From Eledone cirrhosa (taxonomy: Eukaryota): 64,000 bases of DNA. Numbering within the stretch: the first letter of the stretch is position 1; each line of letters opens with the position of its first letter. Shown one piece after another: positions 7,285 through 52,434 of this stretch. Location: the NCBI GenBank assembly GCA_964016885.1, contig OZ024757.1, positions 30,938,001 through 31,002,000 on the forward strand. Reading direction: 5' to 3'. Both the position numbers and the translations under genes were made by a program. The notes beneath the pieces are model-generated. The model was not told the DNA's origin and searched no databases. It was given only the letters and a program-made list of their open reading frames with translations.

Positions 7285-7308
7285 CTTATCAAAATGACTT
7301 TTCCATCT
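7285..7308 (-). CDS. Candidate 24-nt micro-exon (RWKSHFDK)
   Basis: Minus strand ccttttttatttcttttgcag|AGATGGAAAAGTCATTTTGATAAG|gtaagt: strong acceptor and donor, frame-preserving; peptide resembles, from memory, the HWKVLFDQ segment preceding the EF-hand of vertebrate RHBDL3. Confidence 0.55.
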
Positions 7309-7790
7309 CTGCAAAAGAAATAAAAAAGGAATTATCAATATTTGAGAAATGGAAGACAAATTCATTTATTTACTTTCATGTATTTCATAACATACTAGAT
7401 AAATAATAAAGGGAGTGCCTGTAACTGAGTGCAGAGTAAATATACATACAGATTTCACTGATAAAGCTCTGGTTTAGGAAACAACACCTCAATGTTCTGG
7501 TCATTAACCCAACACATTGACTGTAACACTATGTGGCTTCACACACACACATACACGCACATACATACACACACTCATACACGCACATACATATACAACC
7601 ACAAACACACAAACGCAAACACACATACACAAACACACACATACACCAAGACACACACGTACACACACCAACGCACCCACATACACAAACACACACACAT
7701 AGAGAAAGACACAACCACCCACACACCAACACACACACAAACATACACCAACACACACTCACATACATACATATACACAAATACACACAC

Positions 7791-8822
7791 TTTCCCCTCT
7801 GGTTGATGTTGTTGTTGTCAGCAATAAAAGGCATCCATGGTAAAAGACGTACACACACAAACATACACGCACACACATACACACACTCACACACATACAT
7901 ACATACATACATACACACACACACACACTTTCCCCTCTGGTTGATGTTGTTGTTGTCAGCAATAAAAGGCATCCATGGTAAAAGACACACAAACAAACAT
8001 ACACACACAAACATACACACACACACACATACACCAACACACACTCACATACATACACACAAATACACACACTTTCCCCTGTGGTTGATGTTGTTGTTGT
8101 CAGCAATAAAAGGCATCCATGGTAAAAGGCACACAAACAAACATACACTCACACACATACACCAACACACACTCACACACATACATACACACAAATACAC
8201 ACACTTTCCCCTCTGGTTGATGTTGTTGTTGTCAGCAATAAAAGGCATCCATGGTAAAAGACGTACACAAACAAACATATACACACAAACATACACACAC
8301 AAACATACACCAGCACACACTCACATACATACATACACACAAATACACACACTTTCCCCTCTGGTTGATGTTGTTGTTGTCAGCAATAAAAGGCATCCAT
8401 GGTAAAAGACACACAAACAAAAATACACACACAAACATACACACACACACACATACACCAACACACACTCACATACATACACATACATACACACACTTTC
8501 CCCTCTGGTTGATGTTGTTGTTGTCAGCAATAAAAGGCATCCATGGTAAAAGACACACAAACAAACATACACGCACACACATACACCAACACACACTCAC
8601 ACACATACATACACACAAATACACACACTTTCCCCTCTGGTTGATGTTGTTGTTGTCAGCAATAAAAGGCATCCATGGTAAAAGGCACACAAACAAAAAT
8701 ACACTCACACACATACACCAACACACACTCACACACATACATACACACAAATACACACACTTTCCCCTCTGGTTGATGTTGTTGTTGTCAGCAATAAAAG
8801 GCATCCATGGTAAAAGACGTAC
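7791..8822. repeat. Eight copies of a conserved ~58-bp unit separated by variable (CA)-rich spacers
   Basis: tttcccctctggttgatgttgttgttgtcagcaataaaaggcatccatggtaaaag at ~7791, 7929, 8073, 8204, 8353, 8497, 8629, 8761. Confidence 0.9.
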
Positions 8823-11319
8823 ACGTGATATAAAAGATTAAACCTATTCCTTTCCGTTCAATATTGTAAGAGTCCAAAGAGAGACAAAGATTTCATTTCT
8901 TCAATCATTCTGTGTTTAGGGACTTACTGCAAATAATTCTACTCTTGTTGCCTTTGTGCTAATGCCACTTCGATTAATTACTTCATATATATATATATAT
9001 ATATATATATATATATATATATATATATGTATGTATGTATATGTGTATGTGTATATATGTATATGTATGTATGTATATGTGTGTGTATGTGTATATGCAT
9101 ATGTATATATATATGTATATATGTATATGTGTGTATATGTATATGTGTGTATATGTATATGTGTATATGTATGTGTATATATATATATATATGTATATGC
9201 GTATATATATTTATATGTATATGCGTATATATATTTATATGTATATGCGTATATATATGTATATGTGTATATGTATATGTGTATATATATATATATATAT
9301 ATATATATATATATATATATATATATATATATATATATATATATATATATATATATATATATATATATATATATATATATATATGCCCATGCTAAAGTGG
9401 AAGATGGACGTTAAACAATGATGATACACACACACACACACACACACACACACACACACACACACACACACACACACACACACACACACACACACACACA
9501 CTCACATATATATATATATTTTATGTTTCTATGAAGCTATTGTAGTACAACATTAATTATATAATAGTATTCTATACCCTTGCTAGCAGGGAAAAAGGAC
9601 GTTAAAAGATGATAATGTTGAATCTATTGTATATATATATATATATATATATATATATACATACATACATAAACATGTATATATATATATATATAAACAT
9701 GTGTATATATATATATATAGGTGTGTGTGTATACATTATGTAATGCTATAGTAGAACATTAGCTCTATATAACAGGATAGTTTGTTATGTATGTATGTGG
9801 AAGATAGACGTTAAACGATGATGATGATGTATCTATAACTGTATAGTCTATTATATATGCACATGTATATATATATATGTATATATATATATATATATAT
9901 ATATATATATATATATATATATATGTATACATATATATATATGTATACATATATATATATGTATGTATGTATATATGTATATATATATGTATATATGTAT
10001 ATATATATATGCATATATGTATATATGTATATATATATATATATATGCATATATGTATATATATATATATATATATATACATATGTATATATATTCATAT
10101 GTATATATATATATATATGTATATATATGTATGTATATATATGTATATATATGTATGTATACACACACACATATATATATGTATACACACATATATATAT
10201 ATATATATATATATATGTATGTATATATATATATATATATATATATATATATATATATATATATATATATATATATATATGTATATATATATATATATAT
10301 ATATATATATATATATATATGTATATATATATATATATATATATATATATATATATGTTTATATATATACATTATATATACACACACACACATATACACA
10401 TATGTGGGTGTGTGTTAATATCAGAATCGTATGGTGTAATATATATATATATATATATACGTGTGTGTATATATACAACAGTATTGATAGCCTATACACG
10501 TGTGTATATATAACAGTATATATATAGTGTATATATGTGTGTATATATAACAGTATTGTATAGTCTATTATACAAGAAAGAGATTTCATCAGAGATAAAA
10601 CGAAACACTAAACGAATTTATTGAGAAATATTCCGTCAACAGAGAGAAATATGTTGTGGAAGGTAGCAATGTAATTTTACCTTTTAGTGGGTGAAGTGTG
10701 TGGTGTGGTGTGTGGTGTGGTATGGTGTAGTGTGGTGTGGTGTGGTATGGTGTAGTGTGGTGTGGTGTAGTGTGGTGTAGTGTGGTAGTGTGTAGTATGG
10801 TAGTGTGTAGTGTGGTGTAGTGTGGTGTAGTGTGGTGTAGTGTAGTGTGTAGTGTCTGGTGTGGTGTGGTGTAGTGTAGTGTGGTGTGGTGTAGTGTGGT
10901 GTGGTGTAGTGTGTTGTGTGGTGTGGTGTGGTGTGGTGTAGTGTGGTGTAGTGTGTGGTGTGGTGTGGTGTAGTGTAGGTGCGTGGTGTAGTGTGTGGTG
11001 TAGTGTGGTGTAGTGTGGTGTGGTGTAGTGTAGCGTGGTGTGGTGTAGTGTGGTGTAGTGTGGTGTAGTGTGTGGTATAGTGTGTGGTGTGGTGTGTGGT
11101 ATAGTGTGTGGTGTGGTGTGTGGTGTAGTGTGTCTGGTGTAGTGTCATGTATGGCTTGTGTGTGATGTAGTGTGTATGACTTGTGTGTAGTGTAATTGTG
11201 TGGTGTAACATCAACAACAATAACAACACCACCGCCAGTAGTAACAACAACACCAGTAACTGTTGTTTTAGTCCATACCACGTGCTCAGTAAACCCACTG
11301 TTGTTGCCCAAGCTATGGA

Positions 11320-11660
11320 CCTGTTAACCCACTGTTGATGTTGTAGTCCATACTATGTGCCCAGTTAACCCACTGTTGTCCAAGCTATTTGCCCAGTTAA
11401 CCCACTGTTCAAGCTATGTGTCCAGTTAACCCACTGTTGTCCAAGCTATTTGCCCAATTAACACACTGTTGTCCAAGCTATGTGCCCAGTTATCCCGCTG
11501 TTGTCCAAGCTATTTGCCCAATTAACCCGCTGTTGTCCAAGCAATTTGTCCTGTTAACCCACTGTTGTCCAAGCTATTTGCCCAGTTAACCCACTGTTGT
11601 CCAAGCTATTTGCCCAGTTTACCCACTGTTGTCCAAGCTATTTGCCCAGTTTACCCACTG
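11320..11660. repeat. ~32-bp minisatellite (gttaacccactgttgtccaagctatttgccca)
   Basis: About 10 copies. Confidence 0.85.
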
Positions 11661-50565: not shown

Positions 50566-51350
50566 ATCTGTCCAGCGATTCTTTTCTGAGACATTCTAAC
50601 CACATGTCTGTAATATCTGAACTATGATCTCTCAATTCAGAGAAGTAGCAGCTCTACCTGGAGTGACTCTCTGATCTGTCCAGCGATTCTTTTCTGAGAC
50701 ATTCTAACCACATGTCTGTAATATCTGAACTATGATCTCTCAATTCAGAGAAGTAGCAGCTCTACCTGGAGTGACTCTCTGATCTGTCCAGCGATTCTTT
50801 TCTGAGACATTCTAACCACATGTCTGTAATATCTGAACTATGATCTCTCAATTCAGAGAAGTAGCAGCTCTACCTGGAGTGACTCTCTGATCTGTCCAGC
50901 GATTCTTTTCTGAGACATTCTAATCACATGTCTGTAATATCTGAACAATGATCACTCAATTCAGAGAAGTAGCAGCTCTATCTGAAGTGACTCTCTGATC
51001 TCCGAGCTACAAATCTGTTCAGTGATTCTTTCCTGAGACATGCTAACCACATTTCTGTAATATATGAATTGTCATTTCTCAATTCAGAGAAGTAGCAGCT
51101 CTACCTGGAGTGATTCTCTGATCTCCGAGCTACAAATCCGTCCATCGATTCTTTCCTGAGACATTCTAACCACATGTCTCTAATATCTGAGCTTTGAGCT
51201 CTCAATTCAGAGAAGCAACAGCTCTACCTGGAGTGACTCTCTGATCTCTGAGCTACAAATCTGTCCAGCGATTCTTTCCTGAGACATTCTAACCATATGC
51301 CTGTAATATCGGAGCTGTGATCTCTCAATTCAGAGAAGTAGCAGCTCTAT
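50566..51350. repeat. 109-123-bp tandem repeat, ~7 copies
   Basis: tctgtccagcgattcttttctgagacattctaaccacatg...ggagtgactctctga. Confidence 0.9.
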
Positions 51351-51829
51351 TGGAGCCTATGATATGACATAACAGAGTAATTTCCCCTTACTTGTACATG
51401 TTTTATTTATTCCATTTTGTACATATAAACACAATTTATGTAATATATATAATAAATATGAAATATTCAAAAGAGACAAATCAATAGAGATCAATCAAAG
51501 AAAAAGAAAGTAACTAAATACTATAAATAAGAGGAAAAGGAGGGAAAGGATGAGGATTATTCAGTAAAGAAAGAAAGGGGGAAGAGGAGAGGGTGACAGA
51601 CTCTACACCTAAGACAGAGTGGTGTTTAGGGTTGCGTTCTGTGGACAACATGGCAAAGGCATTGCTGCGGACACTGGCCACCGATGCTTTTCTTTCTCTA
51701 TAGCCCCACGCCTCACCCCTCCACCCGTCATCTCCCAGTCCACCCTGACACACCCCACCTTGACACATCCCACCCTAACCACTGAAAAATTAAAAAAATT
51801 CAATGACAGACAAAACAGCGAAAAACAAA

Positions 51830-52320
51830 ACAAAATCAATCAAATGAATCCAAACAAAATCAATCAATTAATCAATCAAACAAAATGAATCAATCAACGA
51901 AATTCAAACAAAATGAATCAAAATCAATCAAATGAAATCAATGAATTTCAATCAATCAAACAAAATCAGTCAAACATAATCAAACGAAATCAATCAAACA
52001 AAATCAATCACTCAAAATCAATCAAAGAAATTCAAACAAAATCAATCAAACAAAATAAATCGATCAAAATCAACCAAACAAAATCAAACGAAATCAATGA
52101 AATAAAATCAATGAAATGAAATCAATGAATCAAAATCTATCAAACAAAATCAATCGATATCAATCAAACAAAATCAATCAATCAAAAAAAATCAATCAAA
52201 CAAAACCAGCCAATCAATGAAACGAAATCAATAAAATCAAATCATACAAAATCAATCAAATAAAATTAGTCAATGAATCAATGAAATCAAATCAATGAAT
52301 CAATGAAATAAGATCAATAA
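51830..52320. repeat. (aatc/aaac)-rich degenerate satellite
   Basis: Composition. Confidence 0.8.
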
Positions 52321-52335
52321 AATTGCAGTACATAC

Positions 52336-52434
52336 GTCTATCATGTGTTGAGGTTCAAGACAGATCATTTCATTGGTTGCAATATCATCTGCTGGGATTC
52401 CATTGAGAGAGTACTCACAATCCAATGCAGCCAT
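52336..52434 (-). CDS. Candidate first coding exon (MAALDCEYSLNGIPADDIATNEMICLEPQHMID), possibly of a rhomboid-like gene
   Basis: Unique-sequence island; ATG in gaagATGG context, 33 open codons ending phase 0 at a GTATGT donor; polypyrimidine-TTACAG acceptor upstream at ~52838. Confidence 0.45.

Follow-up and report, generated by a model that had tools for sequence, protein, structure and literature searches.

The stretch of Eledone cirrhosa DNA analysed here, referred to below as the window, comprises 64,000 nucleotides (assembly GCA_964016885.1, contig OZ024757.1; G000:C18:30938001-31002000 within the 3.0-Gb assembly). It carries the first two coding exons of a rhomboid gene on its minus strand and, in the long intron between them, an array of hammerhead ribozymes of about 12 kb, whose 25 complete hammerheads (17 on the minus strand, 8 on the plus strand) form two inverted arms. 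The array is a previously undescribed member of the retrozymes without long terminal repeats (non-LTR retrozymes), which bears the marks of Penelope-type insertion and most likely came to lie in the intron by chance; a literature search found no paper on retrozymes in octopus. Two further points are new here: the host gene is confirmed, and it has, 5 kb downstream of the array, an exon of 24 nt that is apparently sometimes skipped in relatives. The array length and the unit counts are given as they stand in the genome assembly.

A preliminary description of the window had taken two minus-strand segments for the first exons of a gene, possibly one for a rhomboid with an EF-hand. The gene was found by a search of the genome with the Pfam rhomboid profile, which matched two exons about 147 and 153 kb past the window start on the same strand, and a downstream exon was used as the query to obtain full-length relatives, which were mapped back onto the genome. 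A protein search with exon 1 alone as the query gave no match; the conserved downstream exon retrieved the family. Both segments turned out to be real exons, 1 and 2, joined in phase 0 at the positions in Table 1 and translating as proposed, and the guess that they began a rhomboid was borne out: the gene is RHBDL3-like, its 41 joined residues differing at 2 positions from the Octopus-labelled proteins P0143 and P0145. Nine coding exons span 218.9 kb, with exon 1 inside the window and seven more lying 42-166 kb past the window start on the same strand as exons 1 and 2. All eight introns are bounded by GT and AG, and the reading frame is open over 386 residues, 383 of which are identical in P0145 (labelled Octopus vulgaris rhomboid-related protein 3-like); the open frame includes the rhomboid domain with its catalytic GxSG serine motif and histidine. 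The array had also been placed in an intron of about 45 kb, and intron 1 indeed measures 45,027 nt from GT to AG. Its size is not unusual for this gene, since the introns measure, in order, 45.0, 49.6, 62.9, 34.0, 7.3, 5.5, 10.2 and 3.2 kb.

Five related proteins (P0002, P0142, P0143, P0145 and P0147) have the junction between exons 1 and 2, and in P0002, P0143 and P0145 the exon 1 residues run straight into those of exon 2. The eight residues of exon 2 are missing exactly from P0001 and P0138 and are carried by their near-identical partners P0002 and P0147, from which we infer that exon 2 is skipped in these relatives. Whereas the rhomboid part of the earlier proposal stands, the EF-hand part comes down to a weak score below threshold (EF-hand_6 on P0145, 19.1 bits against a cut-off of 25). 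This weak EF-hand_6/7 match vanishes where the 24-nt exon is absent (P0001 and P0138 compared with P0002 and P0147), and alternative splicing of the entry helix of the EF-hand is likely in related cephalopods. Compared with mollusc RHBDL3-like rhomboid proteases (P0145, P0142, P0019), the protein has the rhomboid domain, the serine motif, the histidine and a weak, sub-threshold N-terminal EF-hand match in common with them and is itself without unusual features. In P0144 (labelled Octopus sinensis), a low-complexity N-terminus stands in place of exon 1 and is probably a gene-prediction error across the long intron 1. Upstream of the start codon, at a distance of some 80-130 nt, lie a TATA-like stretch and a CT-rich tract (window 52510-52560, minus strand).

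Table 1. Features of the host gene and of the retrozyme array in the window
Feature	Position	Strand	Remarks
Start of intron 2	1..7284	-	Intron of 49,609 nt; exon 3 lies beyond the window at G000:C18:30895675-30895517
Microexon 2	7285..7308	-	24 nt, AG...GT, phase 0; start of the degenerate EF-hand
Intron 1 (first of the coding region)	7309..52335	-	45,027 nt, GT-AG
(TA)n-rich target flank, left	12019..12142		
Retrozyme arm 1	12143..20358	-	17.6 identical 468-bp units, 17 complete hammerheads, ribozyme-sense relative to the gene; unit position 230 at the outer end, the inner start being truncated within a hammerhead core (position 439)
Last sense hammerhead before exon 2	12350..12421	-	Predicted to be cut 5,064 nt upstream of the acceptor
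Retrozyme arm 2	20359..24114	+	8.0 units, which lie antisense to the gene, with unit position 301 at the outer end
Example type I hammerhead	20492..20563	+	Predicted cut between 20540 and 20541, after GUU
Tail of about 70 nt	24044..24114	+	At the outer end of arm 2 only; holds a 13-bp hairpin
(TA)n-rich target flank, right	24115..24452		
Coding exon 1, RHBDL3-like gene	52336..52434	-	33 codons, 99 nt, phase 0, followed by GT

The array has the features of a retrozyme: hammerhead units in tandem, a GC content below 50%, no long open reading frame (the longest stop-to-stop frame in 19000-22000 has 67 codons) and dispersed loci. A simple scan of the 468-bp unit found no consensus splice site, and the sole poly(A)-type signal was one ATTAAA on the antisense strand. 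The outermost unit of arm 2 has one 3-nt deletion near 23800. Rfam at its gathering thresholds gave no match anywhere in the window, and the best match by E-value was to HH9 (37.7 bits against a gathering score of 52, E 9e-8). When 15 distinct hammerheads of the window family and a related one were aligned, the core was invariant and 89% of the cells were paired, against 28-48% in slid controls; 7 of the 15 pairs were altered on both sides, which supports stems I and II, although the compared hammerheads are related, so that this covariation amounts to few independent events. The NUH triplet at the cleavage site is GUU in the window family and GUA or GUC in relatives. Helix III consists of one base pair closed off by a tetraloop that is palindromic, and the 468-nt monomer folds strongly (z -9.5). 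The hammerheads of the window are predicted to cleave themselves.

The array is, by the identity of its units, very young: of the units counted from cut site to cut site, 23 of 24 are identical, the remaining one having a 3-nt deletion, and divergence from six other loci of the same sub-variant is near zero. Across the genome there are 5,193 exact copies of the hammerhead and 39,319 matches to a wider core pattern (with 1 for a control), so that about 0.4 exact and about 2.9 wider-pattern matches would be expected by chance in a gene of this size. A second two-armed array lies in intron 3 of the same gene (L029:4154-8025; G000:C18:30882154-30886025), with a 310-bp unit in 7.7 + 4.8 copies that are about 99% alike, where the gene would read 5 antisense and then 8 sense hammerheads; 11 further hammerhead-like motifs, 3 of them sense, were found in the gene, against 0-1 in shuffled sequence. 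In Xenopus, 42-44% of retrozyme copies are intronic, yet they are depleted there per base (10.64898/2026.07.22.740005). Because the hammerhead is so abundant, the same gene holds a second array and many Xenopus copies are intronic, an intronic array is to be expected by chance, and the position of this one is probably incidental. The insertion is also too young for its presence to show selection, and its placement looks like the ordinary outcome for a very abundant mobile repeat.

The mode of insertion was followed by comparing 58 loci, namely the window, the 30 best matches to its unit and 27 further loci (the first 26 places listed on contig C1 and one picked for its sub-variant). Two arms were present at 42 of the 58 loci, joined head to head in every case (42/42), and one arm in the stretch fetched at the other 16. 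Both ends could be read at 40 of the two-armed loci, the other two having an unreadable end, and at 37 of these 40 (one of them read across a single mismatch) the outer ends lay at unit positions 229-238 and 300-305; of the remaining three, one had both ends at the second site and two fitted neither site. The outer ends mostly adjoin (TA)n and the inner ends are scattered. No arm begins or stops at the hammerhead cleavage site, and the cleaved linear monomer is therefore ruled out as the insertion template. Penelope elements insert with an inverted, 5'-truncated copy and a one-sided tail (10.1101/2021.04.23.441226, PMC3846280), and a Penelope protein has been found to extend the two strands of its target, starting at two internal sites, ribozyme cleavage not being required (PMC11167929). 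The retrozyme loci show the same marks, that is, head-to-head, variably 5'-truncated arms (42/42) and a one-sided tail with an AT-rich target (37/40), and the array in the window is accordingly, as far as its structure tells, a non-LTR retrozyme carrying Penelope-type insertion marks.

With the metazoan non-LTR retrozymes (PMC7229834, 10.64898/2026.07.22.740005) the window array shares non-coding, AT-rich tandem repeats with a type I hammerhead in each unit, a strongly self-paired monomer and a frequently intronic position, and with the axolotl HHR_Amex1 (PMC7229834) a weak helix III. Its 468-bp unit is slightly above the 150-450 bp given in PMC7229834 and inside the 51-972 bp of 10.64898/2026.07.22.740005; the available text of these two sources does not describe the two-armed build with two fixed ends. 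With Penelope-like insertions (10.1101/2021.04.23.441226, PMC3846280, PMC11167929) it has in common the head-to-head 5'-truncated arm, the one-sided tail, the AT-rich or (TA)n target and ends unrelated to the hammerhead cut site. Unlike them, it is without an open reading frame, both its arms are multimers of one small unit, and its tail measures about 70 nt.

Two side observations come from other loci. At L044:2285-2820 (G000:C744), the inner end of an array of the window sub-variant runs on into units from an older subfamily whose site is GUC, which suggests that the template was switched between two retrozyme RNAs or that the insertion is nested. At L056 (G000:C3:113977000-113980150), unit variants recur with period 3 in part of one arm, suggesting either a tandem duplication after insertion or a trimeric template.

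Taken together, the locus is quite probably best explained as a very young two-armed retrozyme array that landed in intron 1 of an intact RHBDL3-like gene, likely by chance insertion into (TA)n by Penelope-type machinery. According to this model, a Penelope-like protein would nick both strands of a (TA)n tract and reverse transcribe, at both ends of the break, a retrozyme RNA that is either circular or an uncleaved multimer; two internal start sites about 70 nt apart would then give two arms joined head to head, which later tandem duplication may have extended. Transcription of the gene would yield a pre-mRNA with 8 antisense and then 17 sense units. This RNA could form a stem of about 3.6 kb that would be edited by ADAR, and some ten hammerheads would be left unpaired, which may cleave the intron and set free RNA of unit length. 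For the host, an unselected effect between nil and mild is most likely.

Several points weigh against this explanation. The tail of about 70 nt compares with a published 30-40 nt for Penelope. A Penelope partner with a homologous pseudo-LTR (pLTR) was sought around GIY-YIG matches, in 50 stretches at 47 places, and no convincing one was found; for this search 150 of 10,596 GIY-YIG candidates were scored; the matches obtained were separate insertions of the retrozyme of the window or of a related one, or ran to 14-31 nt at E 0.3-1. The exposure of the host transcript is large. At the mammalian elongation rate of 3.8 kb/min (from the range cited in PMC10919898), the nascent transcript would accumulate 19-39 ribozyme-minutes of exposure before exon 2 is made, so that a rate of only 0.02-0.04 per min would be enough for half the transcripts to be cut. 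In vitro, the retrozymes of mussel and coral reach about 0.1 and 0.8 per min (PMC7229834), and with so large an exposure a real effect on splicing is therefore possible. Transcription of the array, its cleavage and its tolerance by the gene are, moreover, what we infer rather than what was observed. As a separate observation from the partner search, L109, L110 and L111 have open frames that are 844-1,096 codons long, with a GIY-YIG domain at the end, and are possibly intact Penelope-like elements of several families.

The order of the units along the gene, 8 antisense and then 17 sense, was correctly given in the preliminary description. As a peculiarity of the rhomboid gene this order was rejected, since the whole family is built head to head, and the antisense units of such a copy come first whichever side it is read from. 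The multi-kilobase double-stranded RNA that had been foreseen is also possible, the predicted fold-back of about 3.6 kb including a perfect stem of 3,293 bp. The further idea that this duplex would block cleavage holds in part. In the nearest register the fold-back covers 7 complete sense hammerheads and the truncated one, and partial masking of 7-8 of the 17 is possible. Complete protection was rejected, however, as 10 of the 17 lie outside the nearest fold-back and no register masks more than 8.

An alternative that we consider unlikely is that the array is a source locus, where read-through from the host gene supplies retrozyme RNA without any promoter of its own and from which the youngest sub-variant was seeded. 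This sub-variant comprises 69 units over 7 loci, and the window, with 25 of them, holds the largest share. The 17 sense units also lie within a gene that is spliced in relatives, and at least 9 of their hammerheads are beyond the reach of masking by the fold-back. No variant singles out the window as the parent, however, the six other loci having identical letters.

Somewhat less likely again is that the array acts on the host, with co-transcriptional cuts 5-12.6 kb upstream of the microexon (their predicted distance upstream from the acceptor of exon 2 is 5,064-12,552 nt) that would reduce the mature mRNA or shift inclusion of the exon, leaving a hypomorphic allele in the manner of the intronic CPEB3 ribozyme. 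Fast intronic ribozymes lower splicing and slow ones do not (PMC10919898, there credited to Fong 2009), and PMC10919898 also gives 9.9 kb as the distance over which the CPEB3 ribozyme acts. With the exposure calculated above, a rate of 0.02-0.04 per min would halve the uncut transcripts, and the microexon is missing from two related proteins. The relatives that skip it (P0001, P0138) need not carry so young an insertion, however, and helix III is a single base pair, the constrained fold of a single hammerhead coming to +1.5 kcal/mol against -16.1 kcal/mol for the best local fold. GUU is cleaved more slowly than GUC, and exon tethering can allow splicing across cut introns. GUU is a permitted cleavage site all the same (PMC3138052); axolotl hammerheads with such a helix III cleave poorly as a monomer and well as a dimer (PMC7229834), whereas eight of nine Xenopus retrozyme dimers were uncleaved in vitro (10.64898/2026.07.22.740005). 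An effect of the array on the host gene is possible.

Established intronic ribozymes include mammalian CPEB3 (PMC10919898) and the amniote hammerheads HH9 and HH10. Like them, the window has a predicted self-cleaving motif several kilobases upstream of an exon in a long intron. CPEB3 and HH9/HH10 are single, old and conserved, whereas in the window a mobile repeat of very young age is present in 17 sense copies, and it is as a multi-copy element hardly diverged from six other loci, and not as an old single copy, that it differs from a conserved ribozyme of either type.

More ambitious and more improbable still is the view that host read-through serves as the promoter of octopus retrozymes. With their arms pointing outward, all two-armed intronic copies would yield sense ribozymes and a long duplex in either orientation of the gene, so that very many octopus introns would be cut and edited during transcription and would serve as a supply of circular RNA; the array in the window, the largest of the youngest sub-variant, would be the source of that sub-variant and would tune inclusion of the EF-hand microexon. 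Least probable of all is an array inflated from a short insertion by assembly or by local unequal crossing-over, such that 17 overstates the number on most chromosomes, for although near-perfect unit identity could come from polishing and the period-3 variants of L056 point to tandem duplication after insertion, other loci retain unit-specific differences, locus-wide variants are common to both arms, and arms of 5-8 kb recur at other loci.

The 17 predicted cut sites of the array in intron 1 of a conserved, intact gene offer a natural test of splicing across a cut intron, and the array also bears on where non-LTR retrozymes obtain their transcripts. Should cleavage be real and tolerated, animals with large genomes would routinely splice across cut introns; should it not be tolerated, young retrozyme insertions would be a source of weak alleles.

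Substitutions in the family were also followed in relation to RNA editing. Compared with the family majority, the unit of the window has G in place of A at three sites, which lie within 6 nt of the ribozyme strand. In the set of 26 rare substitutions that are locus-wide, A>G outnumbers T>C by 11 to 1, against 24 to 22 among 197 single-copy changes (Fisher p 0.019). Octopus had the highest editing rate among 22 surveyed species (10.1101/2020.01.19.911685); a literature search, mostly without subscription papers, found nothing on retrozymes with ADAR or on edited retrotransposon copies. A 5' G is not depleted at the A-to-G sites (2 of 14, with 2.1 expected), which counts against ADAR. As 12 of the 14 sites would become tolerated G-U pairs, selection for the RNA fold could give the same bias, and either ADAR or such pairing selection could lie behind the three changes in the window. 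Either reading points to the ribozyme strand as the functional RNA, and neither links editing to the rhomboid intron. In the family, locus-wide A-to-G variants at five positions (338, 342, 343, 344, 347) cluster in one hairpin at unit positions 338-347, and L057 has only the first of the five, like an intermediate.

Elsewhere in the window, a nested gene in the remainder of the intron was considered and rejected, the frames of at least 150 codons in 24500-64000 being, by inspection, translations of simple repeats. In the same intron, beside (TA)n at 49640-50240 of the window, two hammerhead-like motifs (49917 on the minus strand, 50058 on the plus strand) form an older inverted pair, with another such motif at 49644, and like inverted pairs lie upstream of the gene at 58756/58901 and 61607/61752.

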